Of a stretch of DNA of 64,000 nt, positions 5,336-58,324 are shown one piece after another; positions within the stretch are counted from its first letter, which is position 1, and each line of letters opens with the position of its first letter. Under the pieces are notes generated by a model. The model saw only the letters and a program-made list of their open reading frames with translations, was not told the DNA's origin and made no database searches. A program made the translations under genes and the position numbers. Source of the stretch: Candidatus Woesebacteria bacterium UBA1430 (GTDB lineage Bacteria > Patescibacteriota > Microgenomatia > UBA8517); NCBI GenBank assembly GCA_002329465.1, contig DCTW01000005.1, positions 4,131 to 68,130 of the forward strand, in the 5' to 3' direction.

Positions 5336-6297
5336 AAGCCGCAGCAAAAGCAACCTCAAATATAGCATTCATAAAATATTGGGGCAAAAAAGATGAAGCT
5401 TTAAGAATTCCTGCGAATTCATCAATCTCAATGAATCTTTCAAACGCTTACTCAATTACCTCTGTGGAATTAAGTAAAAACCTGAAAAAAGATCAAGTTT
5501 ACCTAAATTCTAAAAAAGCCGAGGAAGATGAATACACCCGTATAGTAAAGCATCTTGATTTAATTAGAGCTCTGGCAAAATCAAATCTTTTTGCCAAAGT
5601 TAAAAGCAGAAATAGTTTTCCAAAAGGCACTGGTATTGCTTCATCGGCTTCGGGATTCGCCGCACTTACTCTTGCTGCTACTAAAGCTTTTAAGCTAAAT
5701 CTGTCTCAAAAAAAGCTCTCAATCTTAGCGCGCCTTGGATCAGGCTCGGCATGCAGGTCAATTCCGCCCGGGTTCGTTGAGTGGGTTAAGGGGGCAGATT
5801 CGAAAACCTCATACGCAAAAACGCTTTATCCTCCAAGCTATTGGGATATACTCGATATCGTAGCAATAGTGGGGGAATCCAAAAAAGAAATTTCTTCTAC
5901 AAAAGGGCATTCCCTAACCGGCACAAGCCCATTTTTTAATAAAAGAATTGCCGATTTGCCTCAAAAAATAAAAGATATTAAAAAAGCTCTTAAATTCAAA
6001 GATTTCACTAAATTAGGGACCATCATCGAAGAAGAAGCTCTAAATATGCATGCGGTAATGCTCACCCAGCGCCCGCCGCTTATCTATTTCAACTCAAGCT
6101 CACTTTCGATAATTCGCGAAATTTACGAGATGAGAAAAAAGGGGATAGAAGCATACTTTACACTCGACGCAGGCCCCAACGTTCATATTATCTGTAAGGC
6201 GCCAGACGCGCCAAAAATCAAAAAAATTCTCAAAAACCAAAAGATTGTCAAAAAAATTTTGGTTAACAAACCTGGAAACGGCACTGAAATAATTTAG
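5332..6297 (+). CDS. mvaD: Diphosphomevalonate decarboxylase
   Basis: NIAFIKYWGK, GIASSASGFAAL, GSGSACRS, FTLDAGPNVH. Confidence 0.96.
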   Translation: MKAAAKATSNIAFIKYWGKKDEALRIPANSSISMNLSNAYSITSVELSKNLKKDQVYLNSKKAEEDEYTRIVKHLDLIRALAKSNLFAKVKSRNSFPKGTGIASSASGFAALTLAATKAFKLNLSQKKLSILARLGSGSACRSIPPGFVEWVKGADSKTSYAKTLYPPSYWDILDIVAIVGESKKEISSTKGHSLTGTSPFFNKRIADLPQKIKDIKKALKFKDFTKLGTIIEEEALNMHAVMLTQRPPLIYFNSSSLSIIREIYEMRKKGIEAYFTLDAGPNVHIICKAPDAPKIKKILKNQKIVKKILVNKPGNGTEII

Positions 6298-6327
6298 CGA
6301 AAAATACATATGCTATAATCCATCATT

Positions 6328-6834
6328 ATGGAGCGACGCTTTGAAATAGAAAAGATAGAAATAAGCAATTTATATAGCTTGATTACTAACCCCTTGAGAA
6401 GAGACACGTTGGCAAGAAAACAGCAAGGTGTTGGTGTGGTTATTATTTCAGATAGAAAAATTTTGATGGTTCAGGAAAATAGAAAAGATAAAAAGTATGG
6501 CACAGAAGTTGATATGTGGTCTTTTCCGGCAGGTACTATGGAAAAGGAAGAATCTCCAGCCGATACTGCAATGAGAGAAGTTTTAGAAGAGACAAATAGT
6601 CGGATAACCTCACTAGAGTACTTTGGGTCTTATTTTTATACCAACCAAGCAATAGGCCACATTTATCTGGGAAATATAGATCCTGAACCTGATGGTCTTA
6701 AATCAAACGATAGTGACATTAAAAACGTCAAGTGGATCCCAATAGAACGCATGTTAAATGGTGAAATGAATCTAAGACCTTTTGTAAAAGAGATAGTCAT
6801 GGATGTTACTCTTAATGGTCACGATTCAAAATAA
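6328..6834 (+). CDS. NUDIX hydrolase
   Basis: Nudix box GTMEKEESPADTAMREVLEET. Confidence 0.88.
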   Translation: MERRFEIEKIEISNLYSLITNPLRRDTLARKQQGVGVVIISDRKILMVQENRKDKKYGTEVDMWSFPAGTMEKEESPADTAMREVLEETNSRITSLEYFGSYFYTNQAIGHIYLGNIDPEPDGLKSNDSDIKNVKWIPIERMLNGEMNLRPFVKEIVMDVTLNGHDSK

Positions 6835-7903
6835 AATCAATTAAAAGCTTGATACTACTCCTTTGAGGCTCTTTTTTAAGAAATCCTAGCCGCGCTTCAA
6901 ACAACCGGTTAGATTTGTCCTTCAAATGTCTGGCCGCGCTCCGTGCATAATCAATACTTCCGTGCTTGTTCATCATATTTAAAATCCACTTTATTTCCTT
7001 TTTGGTTTTTTGCTCTCTTTTTTTGCCGAGGATCACCCCAAGCTTTTCAAAATCCGATTTGTTTAAATTTCTTGCAAGATGTCCGAGAATAAGCGTTCTT
7101 TTCCCCTCATATATATCATTGGCCATCTCTTTTTTCCCGCCGAAATCGCCGGTTAGATCCAAAATATCATCAACAAGCTGAAAGCATCGCCCAAGATAAA
7201 CCCCAAACTCAGTTATAGCCTGAAGCTCATCCTCACTCGCACCTGCGATAATTGCTCCGAGCCTCATTGGACCGGCGATTGTGTAGTAAGAAGTTTTTCC
7301 GTCAACTATAAAAAAATAGTCTTCATCACTGATCGTTTTCCGATTATTTTCTGTCCAGATGGCTTCAACAGATTGTCCCATATAAGTTCTAACAAGAATT
7401 TTGTACATTTCTTCGTATATCGCCTCGGATTTTTCTCGCCCCAGAAGTTTGTAATTTTTGGATAACAATTGCCATATTGCGCTTTGGAGATGGTCCCCTG
7501 CGTTGATAGAAACATTTACTCCGTATATCCTGTGAAGCGCTTTTTTGCCGCGTCTTTTGGTTGATCCATCCATAATATCATCATGTACAAGAAGAAAGTC
7601 CTCGGATAGCTGCATAGCAGTAGCGGTAGGCAAAATTTTCTTGCGGCTAGCTCCCATTGCTTCTGCCGTAAGCATTAGAAGTGCCGGCCTTAAATATTTA
7701 CCCTTGCGCCTTGGATATTCGCGAACGGCATGAGAGTGAATATTGGTATAATTTTGATACTTTTTAGGTATTCTAAATTTTTCTGGGAATAAGGGATCGT
7801 CAAGCGCTCTGTCAATAAGAGGCCAAATTATTTTTCTATAATCCTCTAAAATTTTATAGGCTTCGTGTTTTTTAGCTGTCATTCCAGGTAGATTATATTT
7901 CAA
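6812..7903 (-). CDS. trans-polyprenyl diphosphate synthase (FPP/GGPP synthase-like)
   Basis: GKYLRP, FARM FLLVHDDIMD..RRG, KT, SARM FQLVDDILD, DIYEGK. Confidence 0.92.
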   Translation of the reverse strand: MKYNLPGMTAKKHEAYKILEDYRKIIWPLIDRALDDPLFPEKFRIPKKYQNYTNIHSHAVREYPRRKGKYLRPALLMLTAEAMGASRKKILPTATAMQLSEDFLLVHDDIMDGSTKRRGKKALHRIYGVNVSINAGDHLQSAIWQLLSKNYKLLGREKSEAIYEEMYKILVRTYMGQSVEAIWTENNRKTISDEDYFFIVDGKTSYYTIAGPMRLGAIIAGASEDELQAITEFGVYLGRCFQLVDDILDLTGDFGGKKEMANDIYEGKRTLILGHLARNLNKSDFEKLGVILGKKREQKTKKEIKWILNMMNKHGSIDYARSAARHLKDKSNRLFEARLGFLKKEPQRSSIKLLIDFILNRDH

Positions 7904-33229: not shown

Positions 33230-33943
33230 ATGGCAAATTTTAAAAAGATTAAGCCGCATTATCTTCTGGGTGTATTTTTAATTTTCTTTTTTGTCATTTC
33301 TTTAGCTATAGCCTTAGTTTTAGTACAAAAATCAAAAGAAACATCTGAATCAAAAGCGGCTGCAACAGCAACTCTAAGTATTGCTCCACAAACATCTGTG
33401 CTTTCTCAAAATCAAAACCAGGAATATAAAATAATGCTTAATTCCTCGGTCCAAAACGAAAAAATATTTTTTGTGCGTGTTGACATCGAATTTGATAAAA
33501 ACGCACTCAATTTAGTTAGTATAACTCCTTCGGAAAATTTTGTAATTCCTCAAAAAACCAGCGGAGAAAGCCTGGTTAGTACTCCGGCAGAAGCCAACTC
33601 AAGTGGCAAGTTTTATGCCGTTTTTGTTGTGCCTTCTGATAAATTCTCAAGCGCTCCATTGGGGAATTTCGAAGTGGCAAGCTTTACACTTAAAGGCGTT
33701 GCTTCTACTAATTCAAGCAGCATTTCATTCATCACAAATTCTATGCAGGTAGTAAGCCTTAATAGCGACCCAAATCAAAGAAATCTTATTATCTCACCTC
33801 AAAACGCTTCGGTTACCGTAGGCTCGGGAGCCTCGAGTAGTCCGTCGCCCGATGATGCCAGAGCGGATATTAACAGCGACGGTATAGTAAATTTACTTGA
33901 TTATATAATCCTTTTGGAAAATTTTGGGAAACGTTTTAACTAA
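33230..33943 (+). CDS. Membrane-anchored cohesin plus dockerin-like protein
   Basis: N-terminal TM; cohesin-like beta sandwich; C-terminal ADINSDGIVNLLDY. Confidence 0.8.
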   Translation: MANFKKIKPHYLLGVFLIFFFVISLAIALVLVQKSKETSESKAAATATLSIAPQTSVLSQNQNQEYKIMLNSSVQNEKIFFVRVDIEFDKNALNLVSITPSENFVIPQKTSGESLVSTPAEANSSGKFYAVFVVPSDKFSSAPLGNFEVASFTLKGVASTNSSSISFITNSMQVVSLNSDPNQRNLIISPQNASVTVGSGASSSPSPDDARADINSDGIVNLLDYIILLENFGKRFN

Positions 33944-33944
33944 T

Positions 33945-35123
33945 ATGAAAATTGGAAATAAAGCTCTTTTCATAATTTTTACTCTATTTATTCTTTTAGG
34001 AATTGCCTCAGCGGTTTTCTTAAGTCAAAAAACCCAAATAACCACCAAAAAAACCGCCCCTGCAACACAGCTTTCTTTGGTAGGTGACAAAGCAGCCAGG
34101 CTAAGCGAAGAATATAATCTCTCCGTAAATATGGAAACAGGCGAAAACAATGTAGTGGGAGCCGAGCTATATATTGATTATGACCCGGAATTTCTTGAGC
34201 CTACTGCGGTTTCAAAAGGAGCTTTTATGCAGTCCGCCGATGTAATAGGCCCAAGAATCGAATCGGGGGAGATCTTTTATACACTTATAGTAAAGCCAAA
34301 CGACACACCTGTTACTGGAAGTGGAACTATAGCCCAAATTACTTTTAAGACCCTAAAAACCGGAAACACAAATATTAGTCTAAACGAAGGGAAAACACTG
34401 GCAGTAGCAGTAGGGGAAGGAAGTGTTAATGTAATCACAAAATATTCACCTTTAAGCCTAAATATTTATAACACGTTTGTATCTTTGCGCTTAAGCCCCG
34501 ATAAATCCGGATACAATGTAGGTGACGAAGTTATAATTTATGCCTGGGTAAATAGTGGAGGAGTAGATTTGGTGGGGATCGAAATGTTTATAAAGTACGA
34601 TTCCAATATGCTTCGCTTTGAAAAAGCAGACGCGCTTGATTATTTCCAAAATCCGGATATTGTAGGTCCCAATGTTAACACTGAAGCGGGCACAATCCAC
34701 TATACACAAATTCTTCCTCCCGAAAATCACAACACAAAAGAGCAGGGGAACATTGCTGCCTTCACCTTCACGGCTCTAAAAAGCGGCCAGTCAAGCTTGT
34801 CGTTTATAAATCAGCAGACAATCGCAGTAGCCTATGGCCAAGGCCAGCAAAACGTGCTGAAAGAAGCCTTTCCGGCTGAAGTTTTCGTATCGGGCGCTAC
34901 GGCCTCGCCCGGTCCTTCATTGAGCCCGAGCCCGACTCCGGGCGGAGTTATTCCGGGCGATATAAATAGGGACGGCAAAGTAGATATCCTGGACTACACA
35001 CTTCTTCTTGAGTATTTTAGTAAAGAATCGTCAGCCTATCCCAATGCGGATCTGAATGCAGATGGCAAGATCAACCTTTTGGATTATATAGTACTTTTCG
35101 AAAATTTCGGCGCTTCTTCATAA
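33945..35123 (+). CDS. Membrane-anchored double-cohesin plus dockerin protein
   Basis: Two G.E..I.YD...L cohesin repeats; Pro/Ser linker; GDINRDGKVDILDY...ADLNADGKINLLDY. Confidence 0.85.
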   Translation: MKIGNKALFIIFTLFILLGIASAVFLSQKTQITTKKTAPATQLSLVGDKAARLSEEYNLSVNMETGENNVVGAELYIDYDPEFLEPTAVSKGAFMQSADVIGPRIESGEIFYTLIVKPNDTPVTGSGTIAQITFKTLKTGNTNISLNEGKTLAVAVGEGSVNVITKYSPLSLNIYNTFVSLRLSPDKSGYNVGDEVIIYAWVNSGGVDLVGIEMFIKYDSNMLRFEKADALDYFQNPDIVGPNVNTEAGTIHYTQILPPENHNTKEQGNIAAFTFTALKSGQSSLSFINQQTIAVAYGQGQQNVLKEAFPAEVFVSGATASPGPSLSPSPTPGGVIPGDINRDGKVDILDYTLLLEYFSKESSAYPNADLNADGKINLLDYIVLFENFGASS

Positions 35124-35654
35124 ATGCCAAAAATTCGGATAAAAATTTTTTTGATTGGAATAGCGATTATCGCATTGTCGATTTTTGTTTATTTTACTTT
35201 TTCTTCAAAAAACAATGATTCAGAAGATGGCTTTGATGCAGTTTTTAGCGGGCACGAAAAAGCTTGGCAAAAAGGGGAGATCAATTCGCTTACAATATCG
35301 CTCAAAGAGGGAGTCGGAAAAGACTCCTTTCTTCACGCAGTAGCATTTACCATAAGTTTTGATCCAGAAACGCTCGAGCCGATATCTGTCCATGAAGGCA
35401 CAATCTGGAGCAAAACAAACAAACTCGAAGAAAAGATAGATCATTCCCTCGGATTAATCAAAGTAAGCTACGGAATGGCTTTTGATGGAGAGATTGTTGA
35501 AGGTGCAAAAACGCTCGCTTCGTTCGAATTTAAAGTAATTGGTGATAAGAATGAAGTCGAGATAATTCCACTTGCAAAAAGTGCAGCGCGCATGGGCGAG
35601 CGCGATTACCTTTGGATAAATCTAAAACCGGCTATCCTAAAGATAAAACAATAA
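35124..35654 (+). CDS. Membrane-anchored cohesin-domain protein
   Basis: TM helix followed by FTISFDPETLE...LASFEFKV. Confidence 0.7.
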   Translation: MPKIRIKIFLIGIAIIALSIFVYFTFSSKNNDSEDGFDAVFSGHEKAWQKGEINSLTISLKEGVGKDSFLHAVAFTISFDPETLEPISVHEGTIWSKTNKLEEKIDHSLGLIKVSYGMAFDGEIVEGAKTLASFEFKVIGDKNEVEIIPLAKSAARMGERDYLWINLKPAILKIKQ

Positions 35655-35794
35655 CACCAAAAAGCATCACTAATGCACCTACAATCCTTTCTTTTAATTC
35701 TCGCTCTCCCAAAAATACGCTACCCATAATTATCGTAAATATCATACTTAGCTTAAAAACAGCTGTTGCATTGAAGTGTTATAATATTTCCATT

Positions 35795-36838
35795 ATGGGC
35801 GAAGATCCAGGAAGTCCCCGTGATCCGGAACGCCGATATGCGCGCGTCGATGCTACTCTAAATTACAGAAAAGAACTGGAAGAGAATCTAAACGTGGCTT
35901 ATCCGGAAATAACATGGGAAAATATTGACGATTTTAGAAACGGCAAGATCCCCTTCGGTTCAATTAATCTGAAAGAAAAAGATATAAAATTAATAGGCAA
36001 TGTTTTAACATCTGCACTAGAAAGAGCTTCAGATCCACAAGATGTCGCACACAGCACCCACGGTGCAGAGCACGATGTCTATCAAGAAACTTTATCTGTT
36101 TTAGCAGAACATATTGAAGAAGGACAATATTCGATTAGAAGGTCTCGCTCCTACATTAAAATAACCACAGATGCCGGAATCGAAAGAATTCCGATTGAAA
36201 GATTTGTTCTCGAGGGACAACAATTTTTAAGAACCACTTATCGTCCCGAAGCTATTGAAGAGGCGGAATCCTTAAAAAAAGAAAACGACCTTAAAAAAGT
36301 AAATAAAGAGCTAAGAAGAATATGTTTGAGCCGTGGCGTGCCTTACGGCATTCTCGTAGCTACTTATTTTGGATTTAGCCATGACAATATTTTCTCGTTT
36401 TTTGCTGAACCAAACTTTCAAAAAAGCTTAAAAGATGAACTTGGAGATAAAATCAAAATTCCTACACGCAATCGAAAACAAGATGCAAATATGCTTCGTC
36501 AGCTGTCAAACAATATAGTTGTTAGGACAGCAAGTGGCGAAATTTATCCCCAAAGATCAGCCGATGCGCACCAAAAAGGCCTAGAAACTCTTCTCCATTT
36601 CGGGTGGATAGAAAAAGATCAAGTTAGGAAACCGCCGTTATTAATGAAAGAAGTTGAAGACCTGGCTACCCCCAAGGCAATTCTCGTTGGGATGACAGAG
36701 GCGGCACAAAGAAGAGCCTCGAAATCGTATAAAGATCCAGACAAATCCGAATACATATTAGACGAATATTCTAATGTTTCGACAACGATGGTTGTCACGG
36801 CTTATCTGGAAATCCAACCGGTGGACAGTAACGCCTAG
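35795..36838 (+). CDS. Hypothetical protein
   Basis: ATG 35795 follows TGtTATAAT; 347 aa; no recognisable family. Confidence 0.7.
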   Translation: MGEDPGSPRDPERRYARVDATLNYRKELEENLNVAYPEITWENIDDFRNGKIPFGSINLKEKDIKLIGNVLTSALERASDPQDVAHSTHGAEHDVYQETLSVLAEHIEEGQYSIRRSRSYIKITTDAGIERIPIERFVLEGQQFLRTTYRPEAIEEAESLKKENDLKKVNKELRRICLSRGVPYGILVATYFGFSHDNIFSFFAEPNFQKSLKDELGDKIKIPTRNRKQDANMLRQLSNNIVVRTASGEIYPQRSADAHQKGLETLLHFGWIEKDQVRKPPLLMKEVEDLATPKAILVGMTEAAQRRASKSYKDPDKSEYILDEYSNVSTTMVVTAYLEIQPVDSNA

Positions 36839-37233: not shown

Positions 37234-37291
37234 CCCCTTGCTTAAAAAAACATTCCTACATTCAGAATAGAATTATCACAAGATTCCTGTC

Positions 37292-37360
37292 AAATTAGAA
37301 ACAATCTGGCACGAAACCAGCTCATTTGATGTTGAAAGATTGGGGTAATTTCTCAATCCA
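37292..37360 (+). repeat. Repeat B0 (degenerate copy of repeat B)
   Basis: Ungapped 22-codon match to B1: LETIWHETSSFDVERLG*FLNP vs LRTIWCELNTFEIGKIGQFVNP. Confidence 0.65.
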
Positions 37361-37919
37361 CTTTCTTCAATAAATTTAGCGTATTGATGAAAATTTCATC
37401 ACCATAAGCTATATCCTGAAATATCTCTGGATGAAATTGAAACCCGTATATTGATTTTGTTTTATGTTTTATCACTTCATAACCTGTTTCAGATTTAGCT
37501 AAACCATGAAGTTCTTCAGATAAAGTCTCTATTGCTATTTTATGGTTTTCATACGCGGTGAAAATTTTTGTTTCTCCAAAAATACCATCAGCATTAACAA
37601 CTTCTACATTGACAAGGCCTTTTTGTTTATCTGGTAAAGTTGAGAGTTTTGCCCCGAAGGCGTAGGAGACAATCTCAGCACCGAGGCAAACTCCTAAAAC
37701 TGGTTTGTTTGTTTTTTTAACCAGTTCTATTTCTTTCTGATAATCTTCTGGGTGTTCAGTAATGTAAGTATGATGACCCCCTGACAGGACTACTAAGTTG
37801 TAGTCGTCTTCGTTGAAATCGTATTTTGAACTTATCACTTTTACTTGCCCGAACTTAGTTAATAAAGATTCTAGATGGGGGAGATACGAAGTCTTATTGT
37901 CTATAAGAAGTATGTTCAT
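37353..37919 (-). CDS. Class I glutamine amidotransferase (stand-alone)
   Basis: LLIDN, VLSGG, PVLGVCLG, YGFQFHPE. Confidence 0.9.
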   Translation of the reverse strand: MNILLIDNKTSYLPHLESLLTKFGQVKVISSKYDFNEDDYNLVVLSGGHHTYITEHPEDYQKEIELVKKTNKPVLGVCLGAEIVSYAFGAKLSTLPDKQKGLVNVEVVNADGIFGETKIFTAYENHKIAIETLSEELHGLAKSETGYEVIKHKTKSIYGFQFHPEIFQDIAYGDEIFINTLNLLKKVD

Positions 37920-37974
37920 AAAATTAACTATATCAATTTAAGACTTAAAGCGAAATGCGATTTAGGGAAAGTGA

Positions 37975-38045
37975 CTTCAAAATTCAATCCTCCTCAGGGC
38001 TGAGGACAGTTTGATATAGTTTTGTGAGGCTACAAAAAATGCAGG
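37975..38045 (+). repeat. Repeat A1 (71 bp, ends AAATGCAGG)
   Basis: 56/71 identical, ungapped, to 40613-40683. Confidence 0.85.
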
Positions 38046-38093
38046 GGTTAGTAAACTTAGTCAGGAACTTCTATGTTAGTATAAATTATCTAA

Positions 38094-38414
38094 ATGTTAC
38101 TAAAGATAATTATTATCATAAATTTAGTTTGGCAGTCAGTTTTTCTAATAGGAGCAGTTGAGTCAATTAGTAAACTAAGCAAACTAGTGACTGGACACAC
38201 ATTCACTTTTGGTTATCTTTGGCTCACCTTGCTTTGGGGTTTTGGAGTGTCTGCAAACTTGCTTCTCTTAATTTATTTGCTGAAAACTAAGAAAAATATT
38301 GAGATAAAAAAACAAGTTATTATTGGTTTACTATTGGTAATGATACCAATCACTATTTCTTACATTATTGGGGGCTACTATCAACTAAACCTCATCAATA
38401 TTGTTTCGCAATAG
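38094..38414 (+). CDS. Hypothetical 3-TM membrane protein
   Basis: 106 aa, three hydrophobic segments. Confidence 0.6.
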   Translation: MLLKIIIIINLVWQSVFLIGAVESISKLSKLVTGHTFTFGYLWLTLLWGFGVSANLLLLIYLLKTKKNIEIKKQVIIGLLLVMIPITISYIIGGYYQLNLINIVSQ

Positions 38415-38437
38415 CCTAGGCTCTAATCGAGGTTAAA

Positions 38438-38548
38438 GTGCAGGCTTTGGTTGCCAGACTTCGAACAATTTGGTGTGAATTAAACACTTTTGAGATTGGG
38501 AAAATAGGCCAGTTTGTCAATCCAGAACCAGCTTTTAGTTTTAGTTGA
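38438..38548 (+). repeat. Repeat B1 (111 bp, begins GTGCAGGC)
   Basis: 93/111 identical to 39795-39905; open frame VQALVARLRTIWCELNTFEIGKIGQFVNPEPAFSFS*. Confidence 0.9.
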
Positions 38549-38569
38549 TTTCAAGTAAAATATCAGCAG

Positions 38570-39184
38570 ATGGATATGACAAAACTGATTTTGGTTAGAC
38601 ATGGTGAAACAGAAGTTAATGTTAAGGGTAAAATTCACAAATACGGGGACTCTGAACAGTTAACAAAAAAAGGGATTTCGCAGATTGGTAAAACCTCGCA
38701 GGCACTAAAGAAATATCAACCATCCGTTGTATATTGTTCTAAAGAAGAGCGTGCCAAACAGTCAGCAAAAATAATTTCGGATAAGTTGGGCATCCCCTTA
38801 GTTGAAGTAGAAGGACTTGAAGAAAGGAACTGGGGAGACTTTGCTGGTTTATCTTTTCAGGAAATAAAAGAAAAGGCTGGTATGGATAAAATGAGCTTTG
38901 AGGAAAGATACACTTTTCATCCTCCTAATGGAGAGTCGTGGCAGGAAACAGAAGATAGATTGTTAAAAACACTAAATGAAATCCTTTCTAAAAATCAAGG
39001 TAAAAATATAGTGTTAGTTACTCATGGCGGGTCTATTAGAATTTACATGCCCACTCTTTTAGGGGTTAATAAGGAAGAAAGTTACAAATACGACCCTGAC
39101 AATGCCTCAATTTCTGTATTTAGTTATCAAGATGACAAATTTTTCAAAATTATTTACAACGACACATCTCACTTAAATGATTAA
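38570..39184 (+). CDS. Histidine phosphatase (phosphoglycerate mutase superfamily)
   Basis: LVRHGET, RAKQS, LEER.WG, NGES, LVTHGG, NASIS. Confidence 0.93.
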   Translation: MDMTKLILVRHGETEVNVKGKIHKYGDSEQLTKKGISQIGKTSQALKKYQPSVVYCSKEERAKQSAKIISDKLGIPLVEVEGLEERNWGDFAGLSFQEIKEKAGMDKMSFEERYTFHPPNGESWQETEDRLLKTLNEILSKNQGKNIVLVTHGGSIRIYMPTLLGVNKEESYKYDPDNASISVFSYQDDKFFKIIYNDTSHLND

Positions 39185-39641
39185 GGCTCTATTATTTGAC
39201 TTTTCAAGAACAATTTTATTTCCCAAAGATAGGAGTTATCAGGGTGGATTAAACTCCTTACATAAAGAGATGTCATTGCGAGAAGGATATAACTTTCTTG
39301 ACCATTTTGAATTGGACGAACACTTGCTAGGTTATCTCAAAAGTGTAAAAAGTAAATACAAACTGTATATTTTTACTTCTGGTTCAGTTCAAAATGCTCC
39401 TGAAATTAAACCGCGACTTGATGAAATTTTTGACAAGATTTTTTCAGCTGAAGAAATTGGTTTAGCCAAGAACGACCCAAAAGCCTACGAGTATATTGCA
39501 GAAGCCATAGGATTAACTCCTGATGAAGTTCTCTTTACTGATGACACTGAAGAAAACATTAAGGCCGCTAAGTCTATTGGAATGAACACTACGCTTTACA
39601 AAGAGCTTGAGGAATTAAGACGGAAGATTAGTGAGGTATAG
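39177..39641 (+). CDS. HAD-IA-like hydrolase (short; motif I reads DFS)
   Basis: ALLFDFSRT, FTSG, K.DP..Y, LFTDD...NI.AA..IGM. Confidence 0.8.
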   Translation: MIKALLFDFSRTILFPKDRSYQGGLNSLHKEMSLREGYNFLDHFELDEHLLGYLKSVKSKYKLYIFTSGSVQNAPEIKPRLDEIFDKIFSAEEIGLAKNDPKAYEYIAEAIGLTPDEVLFTDDTEENIKAAKSIGMNTTLYKELEELRRKISEV

Positions 39642-39656
39642 AATAGAGAATAACAC

Positions 39657-39776
39657 TGACATGGTGAAACTAAGACTAATTTCGCTGGTAAATTACACAA
39701 AGGTGATGATCCAAAAGAATTGACTGAATTAGGCAAAAAGCAAACAAGAATAATGGCAATGACTATTAAAAATTAA
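39657..39776 (+). pseudogene. 5' remnant of a second histidine phosphatase gene
   Basis: *HGETKTNFAGKLHKGDDPKELTELGKKQ aligns with RHGETEVNVKGKIHKYGDSEQLTKKGISQ of 38570; ends just before repeat B2. Confidence 0.75.
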
Positions 39777-39794
39777 CAAACCCGATCTAGCCCA

Positions 39795-39905
39795 GAGTAG
39801 GCTTTGGTTGCCAGACTTCGAACAATTTAGTGTGAATTGAATAGCTTTGAGATTGAGAAAATAGGCCAATTCGTTAATCCAGAACCTGCTTTTAAGTTTG
39901 TTTAG
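39795..39905 (+). repeat. Repeat B2 (111 bp)
   Basis: Copy of B1 with six synonymous third-position changes and two nonsense changes. Confidence 0.9.
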
Positions 39906-39926
39906 TTTTTGATATAGTTGTGGCTG

Positions 39927-40607
39927 ATGAAGAAGTTGGCATTGTTTGATTTCGATAATGTTATATACAGGGGTCATTCTGTTTTTGATATTATTCAACT
40001 CATGGAAAAAGATGGTTTCATTCAACCAGTTATGTGGAAAGTGGTTGAAGAACAGTTGCATAAGTATAAAAGTAATGAGATTTCATATAAAGATGCTGCT
40101 GATAAAATGCTATTTTCTTGGGCAAAAGCCTTGGAATTTAGAAGTTATCAGTCAGCTTTAGATTATGTTCAAAATTACTTTACAAATAATCCGGACAAGT
40201 TTTTTGGCTGGTTTGAAACTATTAACCAGGTACTTAGCAAGAGTTATAATATTTTTATTATTAGTACTAACTATCAGTTTATTGCAGAAGCAGTCGTTAG
40301 CAGATTTGGATTGCGTGGTTATGTTTCATCTGTGGCGGGAGTAGAAAACGGTTTATTCACTGGTCAATTACAAAAATCGTTAGCTGGAAATAAAGGAGAG
40401 GTTGCATCAATTCTTAAATCCTATCCCAGAGATGATTCTGTTGCAGTTGGAGATTCAGAAAATGATATTGATGTGTTAGAGCGTGTTGATTATCCGATAT
40501 GTTTCCAACCTGATGAAAAACTCAAAATGGTTGCACAGCAAGAAGGCTGGAAATTGGCTGACGAAAATAGTATCCTACAGGTTTTTGATGAGATTTTAAA
40601 AGACTGA
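39927..40607 (+). CDS. HAD-IB hydrolase (SerB-like phosphatase family)
   Basis: LALFDFDNV, IIST, AVGDSENDIDVL...P...PD.KL. Confidence 0.88.
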   Translation: MKKLALFDFDNVIYRGHSVFDIIQLMEKDGFIQPVMWKVVEEQLHKYKSNEISYKDAADKMLFSWAKALEFRSYQSALDYVQNYFTNNPDKFFGWFETINQVLSKSYNIFIISTNYQFIAEAVVSRFGLRGYVSSVAGVENGLFTGQLQKSLAGNKGEVASILKSYPRDDSVAVGDSENDIDVLERVDYPICFQPDEKLKMVAQQEGWKLADENSILQVFDEILKD

Positions 40608-40612
40608 CTTAG

Positions 40613-40683
40613 CTTTAAAGTTCAATTCTCTTCAGGGTTAGGAATAGTTTGATGTAGTTATGTGAAGCAAAAGAAAATGCAGG
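40613..40683 (+). repeat. Repeat A2, running into the tRNA-Trp 3' end
   Basis: Diverged copy of A1; its terminal CAGG is the last 4 nt of tRNA-Trp. Confidence 0.85.
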
Positions 40684-40750
40684 CCTGGAGGGAATCGAAC
40701 CCCCGTCACGGGTTTTGGAGACCCGGGTCCTACCACTGAACGACAGGCCT
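40680..40750 (-). tRNA. tRNA-Trp(CCA)
   Basis: AGGCCTG/CAGGCCT acceptor stem; CGGGT-CTCCAAA-ACCCG anticodon arm; TTCGATT. Confidence 0.96.
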
Positions 40751-40869
40751 AAGCACACATATTTTATCCCGAATCTCTCAGTCAGTCTAGTTTTCACCGC
40801 ATCCCCTCATCAAGTAGGCTTTTAAGATTATTAATACCGGAAGAACCATAAAGACATTGAAAAAAAGTA

Positions 40870-56173: not shown

Positions 56174-57391
56174 ATGGTTATAAATTTACTTATAAAAAAA
56201 GAAGAAATGCGGCAGAAAGAAACCTTAATGCTTATTCCCTCTGAAAACTACGCACCAAAGGAAGTAAGGCAGGCTCTTTGCAGCATGCTTAACAACAAGT
56301 ACTCCGAAGGCTACCCGGGAAAGCGCTATTATCAAGGAAATAAATACATTGACGAAATTGAGCTTATAGCAATCGAATCCGCAAAAAAGCTTTTTGGTGT
56401 GCCTCACGTAAACGTACAAAGCTACTCAGGTTCACCTGCAAACTCGGCAGTTTACATGGCGCTTCTTAATCCGGGGGATAAAATCCTGGGTCTTGCATTA
56501 TCCTCAGGGGGGCATCTGACTCATGGCCACCCGAAAATTACCTTTTCGGGAAAATTTTTCCAAAGCTTTCAGTACGAAGTTGGCAAAGACGGTTTTATTG
56601 ATTACGACGCGCTCGAAAAATACGCCAAAAAAGTTAAACCCAAAATAGTTATCGCAGGCACCACATCATATCCGAGAAAACTCGAATGGCCCCGCTTTTC
56701 ACAAATTGCCGACAATATAGGAGCTATTCTACTTGCCGATATTTCCCATATTGCAGGTCTTGTGGTAGCCGGCGTGCATCCGTCGCCGGCAAGATATGCC
56801 CATGTTATTACAACTACGACCCACAAAACTCTAAGAGGTCCTCGTGGAGCACTAATAATGGTTACCAAAAAAGGTTTAAGAAAATACCCCGATCTTGGCA
56901 AAAAAATAGACCGCGCTGTATTCCCGGGACTTCAAGGAGGCCCCCATAATAGCCAAACCGCAGCAATAGCAATAAGCCTTCAAAAGGCTCTTACCCTAGA
57001 TTTCAAAAAATATGCCAAACAAATTGTTTTGAACTCAAAAGCCTTGGCAAAGGCACTCAAAAATTACGGATTCGATCTGGTTTCGGATGGCACTGATAAT
57101 CATTTAATTCTTATAGATCTCAGGTCAAAAGAAATTCTTGGTAAGGATTTTGCAATAAAGCTGGAAAAAGCAGGAATAATAGTAAATTACAACGCAATTC
57201 CAAAAGACCCAAACCCACCCGCAAACCCGTCCGGTATTAGAATTGGCACGCCTGCAATTACTACACGAGGAATGAAAGAGCCGGAAGCAAAAATCATCGC
57301 CGATTTTATTAATAGAGTACAAAAAGGCGATTCGTCAAATAATGTTAGAAGAGAAGTAAAAGCTCTTTGCAAAAAATTCCCCATCTCATAA
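56174..57391 (+). CDS. glyA: Serine hydroxymethyltransferase
   Basis: SENY, YSEGYPGKRYY, GGHLTHG, TTTHKTLRGPRG, SGIRIGTPA. Confidence 0.97.
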   Translation: MVINLLIKKEEMRQKETLMLIPSENYAPKEVRQALCSMLNNKYSEGYPGKRYYQGNKYIDEIELIAIESAKKLFGVPHVNVQSYSGSPANSAVYMALLNPGDKILGLALSSGGHLTHGHPKITFSGKFFQSFQYEVGKDGFIDYDALEKYAKKVKPKIVIAGTTSYPRKLEWPRFSQIADNIGAILLADISHIAGLVVAGVHPSPARYAHVITTTTHKTLRGPRGALIMVTKKGLRKYPDLGKKIDRAVFPGLQGGPHNSQTAAIAISLQKALTLDFKKYAKQIVLNSKALAKALKNYGFDLVSDGTDNHLILIDLRSKEILGKDFAIKLEKAGIIVNYNAIPKDPNPPANPSGIRIGTPAITTRGMKEPEAKIIADFINRVQKGDSSNNVRREVKALCKKFPIS

Positions 57392-57397
57392 CAGGTC

Positions 57398-58324
57398 TTA
57401 TTTCAAAGAAATGTCTTTTTCTATCAACTCGATATCTTTGAGCAATTTTGTCATAAATGGTTTGGACATTGCAGCAGCAGACTTAGCGGCAACCTGGCTA
57501 ACAAGAAACTCAGTGCGCCGATCTGTCGTGCCATCGTAGAAATGCTTTGGTTTTAATTGATGTACATGGTGCCAAAGAATGCTGATGGTATCCATAATAA
57601 ATTGCCATTTTGAGGGATCTCGCTGCTTTATTTCTGCTAATACTCGTATAATCAAATTTCTGTGTTTTTGGTTAACTTCTGGGGGTATTGAAGGGGTCAA
57701 ATAAACTATCAAGTTACTTGCTAATTCATCAATGTCTTTACACTTAAAAAATCTTCGTGCATCATCTATATCGGCAAGCTCATCGATACAATATTCAGCA
57801 TTATAGTATTCACATGCATAAGTACTTATTCCATATTGCTCTGCTATATTTGGAATATCGCTTTCCATAGCCATTCTTGCTCGGGTTAAACTCTCTCTAA
57901 TTTCATCTGGGTCAATACTTTTCCTGGTAATAGTTATAATATCCACGTCAGGGGTGCCCGATCTCGCGGCCTCGCGCAGATTAGCACCTCCGTGAAGTCC
58001 GCTGCCTACAACTACTAAACCTGCTATTGTATCCATTTCAAGCATCAGAACTCTATTAGCCATATCCTCAGCCACGGCAAGAATCTTTGAGTTTGGGTTA
58101 AATTCATTTTGTGTAAACGCGACTAGCATCTGATCAATATTGACTCTTTCCTCTTGCGCTCTAACGGCAGACTTTACAGGCTCTGCGTCCGTATGATTAC
58201 CATACAAGAACTCTTGGTCAATTAGCACTCGTCGCACAGCTCTTTTTGTTTCTTTTATCCATTGCTCTTGTTCTACCATGGGGCAATATTTAATCATATT
58301 TTCTGTATTTTTGCTACTGGTCAC
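57398..58324 (-). CDS. Hypothetical protein with Pol-beta-type nucleotidyltransferase-like motif
   Basis: LVVVGSG...PDVDIITI (hGS...DxD). Confidence 0.5.
   Translation of the reverse strand: MTSSKNTENMIKYCPMVEQEQWIKETKRAVRRVLIDQEFLYGNHTDAEPVKSAVRAQEERVNIDQMLVAFTQNEFNPNSKILAVAEDMANRVLMLEMDTIAGLVVVGSGLHGGANLREAARSGTPDVDIITITRKSIDPDEIRESLTRARMAMESDIPNIAEQYGISTYACEYYNAEYCIDELADIDDARRFFKCKDIDELASNLIVYLTPSIPPEVNQKHRNLIIRVLAEIKQRDPSKWQFIMDTISILWHHVHQLKPKHFYDGTTDRRTEFLVSQVAAKSAAAMSKPFMTKLLKDIELIEKDISLK

Follow-up and report, generated by a model that had tools for sequence, protein, structure and literature searches.

What are the small genes and repeated sequences stacked against the tRNA-Trp gene at its 3' end, and how did they come to lie there? 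The window, which is the whole stretch of 64,000 nucleotides analysed, carries tRNA-Trp(CCA) on the minus strand (40679..40750), and the 3' end of this gene is the integration target for a stack of 3.4 kb. A preliminary description had read the locus as att-like half-sites, A and B, scattered between cargo genes by several successive small insertions, and had left open whether the inserts were decayed elements or minimal cassettes. We resolved the stack into four units, described here from right arm to left arm and lying on the plus strand unless stated otherwise.

Unit 1 starts with B0 (37295..37378; profile E = 1.2e-8), an eroded right arm that has lost the core and inner arm, is 5'-truncated and contains one internal stop. 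Its cargo gene, on the minus strand, encodes a class I glutamine amidotransferase of 188 aa (37353..37919; PF00117, E = 1e-24), and the unit closes with A1 (37973..38045), a long non-coding left arm that ends in the core (CAG at 38042-38044), is delimited by sequence comparison and by a strain breakpoint at 38045, and contains a promoter-like extended -10 motif at 38012-38020. Unit 2 opens right behind A1, sharing its core, with a short right arm, b* (38042..38074; reading QGLVNLVRNF; profile E = 1.8e-10), followed by a hydrophobic 106-aa ORF without Pfam or NCBIfam match (38094..38414) and a short left arm (38427..38440) that by eye resembles the short arm before many b* cores. Unit 3 opens with B1 (38441..38548), an intact core with a 35-codon tail, and carries genes for a histidine phosphatase of 204 aa (38570..39184; PF00300, E = 1e-49) and, by domain search, a HAD-IA hydrolase of 154 aa (39177..39641). 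A broken second histidine phosphatase (39660..39797), 50% identical to the intact one over 28 aa (E = 4.5e-7), then runs into the core of B2, and no left arm is recognizable. Unit 4 comprises B2 (39798..39905), a decayed right arm with a changed core and two nonsense codons, a promoter-like extended -10 motif directly after it (39910-39918), a gene for a HAD-IB phosphatase of up to 229 aa (39918..40607; PF12710, E = 3e-12; TIGR01488 above cut-off) and A2 (40611..40683), a second long non-coding left arm ending in the core (CAG at 40680-40682). Three of the four units hold one ORF; the four right arms belong to two classes, and left arm A closes only two of the units. Of the cores, those at 38042, 38441 and 40680 are intact, the one at 39798 is altered and that of B0 is lost. 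This genome's stack is partly fossil: B0 is eroded, the B2 core is mutated and unit 3 is cut inside a gene, so that two arms and one junction are decayed.

Most of what had been described initially was borne out. A1 and A2 are identical at 56 of 71 positions (37975-38045 and 40613-40683; blastn E = 3.5e-11 against the own genome), both finish with the core, and the core is identical to the 3' boundary of tRNA-Trp. B1 (38437-38551) and B2 (39794-39908) are 84% identical without gaps (blastn E = 1e-31); B1 begins with the core, as first described, while that of B2 carries a C-to-T change. A Pfam search upheld the gene order and labels, and there were no Resolvase or Phage_integrase matches on the window's whole contig, in keeping with the reported lack of a recombinase gene. 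The proposed succession of small units stands, with the fourth right arm, b*, having been overlooked. A genome-wide search found no further copies of A, B or b* in the 594-kb assembly, which is 85% complete; look-alikes of A and B on contigs C3, C6 and C7 are chance matches in coding or unrelated sequence.

Comparison with close relatives showed that the stack is variable. A genome of the same genus (G001; 91% identical flank) carries unrelated cargo here: similarity stops at 37295, and the variable region spans 37296-40677. Near-identical strains in sequencing runs of two other studies (X14 and X6) depart from the window right after 38045; rather than a clean core-to-core deletion, the variant is a replacement of ~550 nt, whose far joint falls within the tRNA at 40712. 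Joints at 90% likeness with sides shorter than 30 letters were dropped (in the X6 joint one side measures 30 letters), and low cover of X14 over 38051-40624 was taken into account only in combination with the loose end at 38045. One locus (L090) is identical to the window, and the two runs that are possibly its source (X1 and X2) were excluded from the counts. Neither circles nor back-joints were found in the assembled contigs of seven runs, which is not evidence of their absence.

The identity of B emerged from recombinase genes in relatives. Large serine recombinase (LSR) genes with PF00239, PF07508 and PF13408 domains run into tRNA-Trp in the reading frame of B, and in 25 of 28 LSR homologues the frame continues past the core codon into tRNA-derived sequence or stops within two residues. 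In three database proteins (P0044, P0042 and P0053) the C-terminal end of an LSR continues in frame into B, and a third class of tail occurs on the full-length proteins P0028, P0073 and P0074 as well as behind A in locus L096. Conservation by codon position across 41 B arms (0.78/0.84/0.67) is a coding signature. To judge from these reading frames, B is the severed C-terminal tail of a tRNA-Trp-targeting LSR. Nine islands of 4.1-12.8 kb with a full-length LSR carry B or b* at the end away from the tRNA. Because the LSR gene of such autonomous islands spans the core, it is split on integration: its body stays beside the tRNA, and its last codons come to lie at the opposite end. A protein with Resolvase and Recombinase domains (with or without zinc ribbon) is absent from the window's units, which are bounded by the same core and the same right arms as these islands. 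The suggested attP-like A-core-B site does exist in joined form, on one contig (L092), but B is more than an att half-site. The preliminary description had also suggested looking for a recombinase gene next to the arms elsewhere, and the islands supply it.

The motif GAAC lies 17 nt from the C of the core in 80 of 82 tRNA-Trp arms (some of these loci are redundant), at 22-23 nt in 45 of 65 B arms and at 23 nt in b*. The difference matches the 5-bp shift of the distal motif between attB and attP given for serine integrases in the accessible text of PMC3783163. Among the left arms, one class has an inverted motif near the place expected from symmetry, A has tRNA-arm-like motifs farther out, and the short arm has none that is clear.

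No Trp-type LSR was found in the organism's own assembly, 594 kb long and 85% complete. The LSRs that it does encode were rejected as drivers of the stack: their reading frames enter tRNA-Asn and tRNA-Glu, they do not group with the Trp clades, and their identity to members of those clades is 21-29%. A weak Trp-LSR match at 40623-40736 was discounted since it overlaps the tRNA-derived tail. In relatives, the largest stacks have no adjoining LSR, and no tie was established between the long-branch LSRs of genomes G008 and G043 and the stacks in those genomes.

Among 401 genomes of the class Microgenomatia, 39 contain B and 15 contain b*, with stacks that reach 17 units. The length does not exceed 1200 bp in 110 out of 162 units (median 809), and 102 of those 110 contain a single ORF, with 51 on each strand; the gene takes up an average of 76% of the unit, and G043 packs 17 units into 12.3 kb. 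Such units, devoid of a recombinase, retain the right arm, mostly carry one gene, which may point either way, and finish with a left arm that does not code (A, short or other). Pfam matches were obtained for 29 of 52 cargo proteins, six of them NUDIX, others methyltransferases and GNATs. A RibD-C cassette recurs in loci L082, L133 and L032 at different array positions, about 88-91% identical from core to core, next to tRNA-Trp genes that are 76-80% identical where blastn aligned them; further pairs that share units are L051/L207, L038/L137, L129/L133 and L028/L135. The window's five cargo genes have no close unit in the other fetched loci (one distant match, 22%), and viral contigs gave no match to the A and b* patterns. 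The interpretation first offered is supported, because A and B do occur joined, an LSR does lie near such arms and cargo does vary, both between relatives and between strains.

Taken together, these data make it probable that the units move as discrete cassettes without a recombinase of their own, inserted by the LSR of a visiting island at junctions made of the tRNA core and the LSR tail. On the question left open at the outset, the comparative data favour discrete cassettes, with part of this array decayed. Each unit would circularize at its two cores, giving left arm-core-right arm, and the circle would integrate at the tRNA 3' end and shift older units outwards, with the visiting island supplying the recombinase in trans and promoter-like hexamers in or beside the arms expressing the cargo. 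The junction on the tRNA side would need to remain a usable target. Canonical serine integrases, as described in the accessible text of PMC3783163, do not act on sites in other pairings, so repeated insertion at a regenerated junction would need relaxed directionality. That the units may be independently mobile we infer, with indirect support from shared units and strain breakpoints.

It is also possible, though rather unlikely, that the units are not self-moving and are the remains of larger LSR islands after deletion or imprecise excision. Decay intermediates do exist: L084 and L144 contain LSR stubs, the core interrupts a cargo gene in L025, as in unit 3, and B0 and B2 are themselves eroded or mutated. 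The coding signature of B is what would be expected had the tails left intact LSR islands recently. A, too, may be a decayed LSR 3' end, a weak signal in which peptide scores reach 19.2 against 15.5 for controls with no excess at the DNA level. Against such an origin, the same left arm, whether A or the short arm, recurs beside unrelated genes (about a dozen in the case of A), shared units keep their core-to-core limits in distant hosts, and neither the predominance of tightly filled one-gene units nor the 17 in a row in G043 is readily accounted for. Counting against the cassette reading, left arms as a whole are heterogeneous: 120 of 155 are singletons, in a set that includes tRNA flanks without units, and the strict short-arm pattern is present at only 22 of 100 b* sites. 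On the same side stand the negative search for circles, the strain variant that is a replacement, the missing close matches for the window's cargo units and the largest stacks with no LSR next to them. Other identities for A were rejected, as a coding sequence (stops in all frames across copies, plus a 1-nt indel) and as a structured RNA or attC site (weak folds, with consensus energies of -3.4 and -1.3 kcal/mol; only tRNA above the Rfam gathering score).

A very improbable alternative is that B is a small protein in its own right, no part of the recombinase, with a promoter in A driving its expression when the circle closes. The frame of B stays open for at least 30 aa in 50 of the 75 arms listed; in this genome the promoter-like motif of A is over-represented in front of genes (24 of 78 sites, compared with 4/56, 4/32 and 0/21 in controls), and A often carries a possible start codon at the core. 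Moreover, no full-length LSR with a long B tail was among 32 matches in 50%-identity representatives, but clustering at that level would mask full-length forms that have the tail, since tRNA-tailed ones would represent them. The in-frame LSR-B fusions speak against a separate protein, and b* conserves only about 12 codons.

The locus had also been likened to an integron-like platform without attC sites. In integrons, compact one-gene cassettes for small accessory enzymes form arrays, with a recombination site repeated between them and genes mostly in one orientation; the attC sites of these arrays (RYYYAAC...GTTRRRY) fold into hairpins. One-gene units of small accessory enzymes between repeated sites are indeed what we found. 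However, a pattern search of 37251-40760 returned no attC-like pairs, A folds only weakly, cargo orientation is evenly divided, the target is a tRNA 3' end and the enzyme is a serine recombinase. Within the assembly, 85% complete, the best IntI candidates are two Xer-like proteins encoded on other contigs, which score 114.5 and 58.9 bits with TIGR02249 against a cut-off of 265. With neither IntI nor attC this is not an integron, and a true integron or attC cluster served by a tyrosine integrase is extremely improbable. Local duplication within one fixed gene cluster, which two HADs and two histidine phosphatases close together might suggest, can be dismissed with near certainty, as dozens of genomes contain the arms next to unrelated cargo and G001 and the two strain variants differ here.

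The closest known systems are tandem pseudo-SCC elements and CIMEs, together with the ssrA islands of Dehalococcoides. The accessible text of PMC3146451 describes the latter as tandem islands with a serine recombinase of ~540 aa, DsiB, whose gene overlaps the att site without a stop of its own and, as proposed there, would be whole only in the circular form or next to the 3' fragment of a neighbour; 15 islands lacking an integration module were suggested to be cis-mobilizable. As there, elements sit here in tandem behind a stable RNA gene, at its 3' end, and a recombinase gene that spans the att site is completed by a 3' fragment. Unlike in that account, the target is the tRNA 3' end rather than the tmRNA T-loop, the units are mostly 0.4-1.2 kb with one gene, and the missing fragment is identified, fused to LSR ends. 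In SCCmec and pseudo-SCC, a large serine recombinase (CcrAB or CcrC) excises and circularizes adjacent tandem cassettes at one chromosomal site, singly or together (accessible part of PMC11470126). Those cassettes are 17-26 kb long, at rlmH and with ccr in the array, whereas the present units are far smaller, up to 17 deep and without a recombinase in the stack; the target is tRNA-Trp, not rlmH, and the genome's own two LSRs score 135 and 75 bits against a CcrB cut-off of 900. CIMEs, treated together with tandem ICE and IME accretion in the portion of PMC5704250 available, are elements that have kept both att sites without integration and transfer genes and that accrete at tRNA 3' ends. The window's units likewise contain no integration or transfer gene, but CIMEs are depicted there mainly as decay products of tyrosine-integrase ICEs and IMEs, not as one-gene cassettes with a shared non-coding arm. 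Tycheposons of Prochlorococcus share the seeding of foreign DNA accretion by tRNAs, but the accessible text has 910 of 937 elements using tyrosine recombinases; they encode their own integrase, many with replication genes (10.1101/2020.12.28.424599).

No report of LSR cassette stacks in CPR bacteria was found in a literature search whose coverage stopped short of subscription journals and supplements. More tentatively, such stacks may constitute a serine-recombinase counterpart of the integron in Microgenomatia, in which one-gene cassettes with interchangeable arms would be exchanged between families and, driven in trans by visiting LSR islands, pile up 17 or more deep at tRNA 3' ends, and in which the 35-residue LSR tail, joined only in the circle or in tandem, would switch the activity or direction of the enzyme. 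The parts are named (core, right-arm tail, left arms and LSR clades), so the system could be rebuilt in E. coli, and the suggestion from Dehalococcoides of a recombinase split by its own att site and complete only on the circle becomes testable. As integration tools, LSRs capable of repeated insertion at a regenerated tRNA site would also be of interest. CPR bacteria have very small genomes, and few ways in which they gain genes have been described; for them, a locus of this type would be a precise and repeatable means of collecting small accessory enzymes, resembling an integron but with a different chemistry.

Four tandem units, each with a right arm and cargo, three of them with a left arm too, and joined at copies of a common core, occupy 37296-40677 and abut the tRNA-Trp gene (40679-40750, minus strand). 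The left arms A1 and A2 and right arms B0, B1 and B2 of the preliminary description were confirmed (A1 and A2, 56/71 identical; B1 and B2, 84%; B0, detected with a B profile at E 1.2e-8), and its cargo labels agreed with checks of the window proteins. A right arm of another class, b*, immediately 3' of the A1 core, had been overlooked, and with this extra arm the stack is therefore read as four units: B0-GATase-A1, the outermost; b*-106-aa ORF-short arm; B1-phosphatase-HAD-broken phosphatase; and B2-HAD-A2, followed by tRNA-Trp. The core is preserved at 38042, 38441 and 40680, altered at 39798 and lost from B0. As had been claimed, no recombinase gene is present at the locus: the two large serine recombinases (LSRs), one small resolvase and two Xer-like proteins of this genome (594 kb, 85% complete) are all encoded off the window's contig. 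The two LSR genes (L020, C1 ~56450-57950; L021, C5 ~6090-7660) read into tRNA-Asn and tRNA-Glu, a split-gene arrangement as at tRNA-Trp.

B1 consists of 35 open codons reading from the core onward, and differs from B2 at one first, four second and eight third codon positions; a third-position excess was also seen in a set of 41 B arms. The B peptide is present in 12/100 relatives and 39/401 class genomes (own genome counted), where the open frames holding it are all at most 125 aa. In L037, an LSR of 516 aa (Resolvase, Recombinase, zinc ribbon) enters the tRNA-Trp complement exactly in the frame of B, and B lies at the far end of the island, 9 kb away. For a second tRNA-Trp-reading LSR, all 28 homologues share a terminal motif at the core; in 25, the protein either continues with tRNA-derived sequence or ends no more than two residues later. 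The B profile gave 32 matches among 1.84 billion representative proteins; none was a full-length LSR with B, and P0044, P0042 and P0053 are C-terminal LSR ends fused in frame to B. A third tail class occurs on the full-length LSRs P0028, P0073 and P0074. The tRNA-reading frames and natural LSR-B fusions thus show that the LSR gene is split at the core by integration, and the junctions of the stack almost certainly derive from LSR. The distance between a GAAC motif and the core C is 17 nt in 80/82 tRNA-Trp arms (some loci redundant) and 22 or 23 nt in 45/65 B arms, the other 20 having an earlier match (13), no GAAC (6) or an offset of 11 (1). This difference fits the 5-bp shift between attB and attP of serine integrases described in PMC3783163.

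The b* pattern was found in 15/401 class genomes, with no matches to a reversed control pattern. Islands with a full LSR end distally in b* (five) or B (four). In an LSR tree of 17 proteins, four b* enzymes cluster (support 100/99) and the fifth, L072, falls in a sister pair; the four B enzymes also cluster (88/89), and neither group includes the LSRs of the own genome. P0044 combines a b*-type enzyme end with a long B, and tails are therefore also exchanged at tandem junctions. Some b* arms carry ~27-nt inserts at one shared position (oriented: L174 5608 and 10895, L160 12184, L075 8669), identical between both G043 sites.

The left arm A is conserved and non-coding: its 12 distinct copies (mean column identity 83%) contain stops in every frame and an indel. 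By DNA search it was found in 3/100 relatives, and in 11 metagenome stretches; a single contig with the same sequence as the window accounts for two of these, and several others repeat genomes encountered before. A usually starts at the stop codon of the cargo gene, and lies ~640-860 nt behind a B in 11 cases. What follows its core varies (tRNA-Trp, b*, partial tRNA arms, other tails or, in L092, a long B, the joined A-core-B that the preliminary description called for), and a variant lies at tRNA-Asn in L172 (G044), where the 5' part of the A-like arm (225-284) resembles, by eye, the tRNA-Asn T-arm. An inverted tRNA T-arm segment matches at 13/16 positions in 8/12 copies (0/500 shuffles each) and at 10/16 in A1 itself. 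A also carries an extended -10-like motif, which is enriched ahead of genes in the own genome (24/78 sites versus 4/56, 4/32 and 0/21 in controls) and would serve as a promoter. A stable hairpin was rejected, folding of A being weak, and comparison with LSR ends did not demonstrate descent of A from an LSR 3' end.

The loci fetched by search matches, a non-random set with one unit counted twice, contain 162 units (median 809 bp), 11 of them with an LSR or LSR stub inside. The units are compact: 110 are at most 1200 bp, and 102 of these hold a single ORF (51 per strand, mean fill 76%). In G043, at least 17 units of 414-1136 bp (14 with a single ORF) lead up to tRNA-Trp, the contig ending within the stack; stacks in G299, G008 and G055 have 6-9. 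Pfam matched 29/52 cargo proteins (six NUDIX, methyltransferases, GNATs, MazG, SDR, cupin), with no integrase or transposase among the 52. Units are shared between hosts. A RibD-C unit in L082 is 90.9% identical over 825 nt to that in L133 and 88-91% to that in L032; the similarity is bounded by the arms, stack positions differ, and the carriers span at least two families, their tRNA-Trp genes being 76-80% identical where aligned. L051 and L207 also have a unit in common: one locus carries it in the outermost position, next to an LSR island, and the other carries it alone at the tRNA. A unit of two genes (86-92 aa each; oriented, L135 1157-1831 and L028 3367-4039), 85% alike between two families, is presumably toxin-antitoxin-like, judging from size and appearance.

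L130-L132 (G206) are B-type stacks with an altered core and A-like left arms, one terminating at tRNA-Pro. L141 (G299) terminates at a partial tRNA-Trp arm, beside a 13-tRNA cluster and an LSR at tRNA-His; G299 has additional b* sites at its own tRNA-Trp. In L189 (G008 C4), a tRNA-His LSR lies in two frames (389 and 132 aa), with three b* sites 14 kb off; in G008 as a whole, four loci carry b* sites.

Cargo beside tRNA-Trp differs among relatives and strains. The same-genus genome G001 has flanks 85-94% identical to the window; similarity breaks at 37295 and resumes at 40678, and in between G001 carries 1.18 kb of unrelated cargo, with neither B nor A. In contig data from two studies (runs X14 and X6), a 20-kb X14 contig shows three differences from the window up to 38045 and then a different tRNA-arm-like sequence, a second contig of similar depth joining the window at 40712, and a 635-nt X6 contig bridges 38045 to 40712 (30 letters on one side) alongside the full stack. 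X7, X8 and X2 have the window's layout. The left break is exactly the A1 core and the right lies inside the tRNA; the variant is therefore a replacement, not a clean excision. The ~550 nt in place of 38046-40711 (three units and the tRNA 3' half) begin with another tRNA-like 3' arm, and may represent a tRNA-Trp that is foreign or contains an intron. At 37933, contigs in X6 and X7 branch off into unrelated sequence and re-enter a few bases earlier, a pattern suggestive of an insertion element carried by some of the strains. A 408-aa ORF (35612-36838; no Pfam or NCBIfam match) is missing at the corresponding place in G001 and is therefore a separate insertion; 33230-35654 encodes three neighbouring proteins of secreted type, which have repeated domains and ends resembling dockerins.

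We consider it probable that the units are discrete mobile cassettes. They would pass through circular intermediates, with LSR supplied by visiting islands, either in trans or in cis, and the tRNA-side junction would be used again and again. Several points count against this mechanism: no circles were seen in contigs of seven runs, left arms are heterogeneous, clear decay intermediates exist, and canonical LSRs, according to PMC3783163, reject other site pairings. CcrAB/CcrC, by contrast, excise tandem cassettes in every combination (PMC11470126). That the units are instead scars left from larger islands seems unlikely to us. In L025 (~6130-6182, oriented), a short-chain dehydrogenase gene is truncated at the core and joined to the tRNA arm, which points to recombination through a secondary core.

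The stack is like an integron in architecture, but departs from one in IntI, attC and cassette orientation alike. It shares the sequence-level features of CIME and pseudo-SCC elements given in PMC5704250. Its closest known parallel is the ssrA array of Dehalococcoides, in which dsiB overlaps attL and 15 islands lack an integration module (PMC3146451). A literature search on CPR bacteria found no account of such a system among the papers listed. What the window newly contributes is natural LSR-tail fusions for B, one non-coding left arm common to unrelated cargo, and a strain break at a core.
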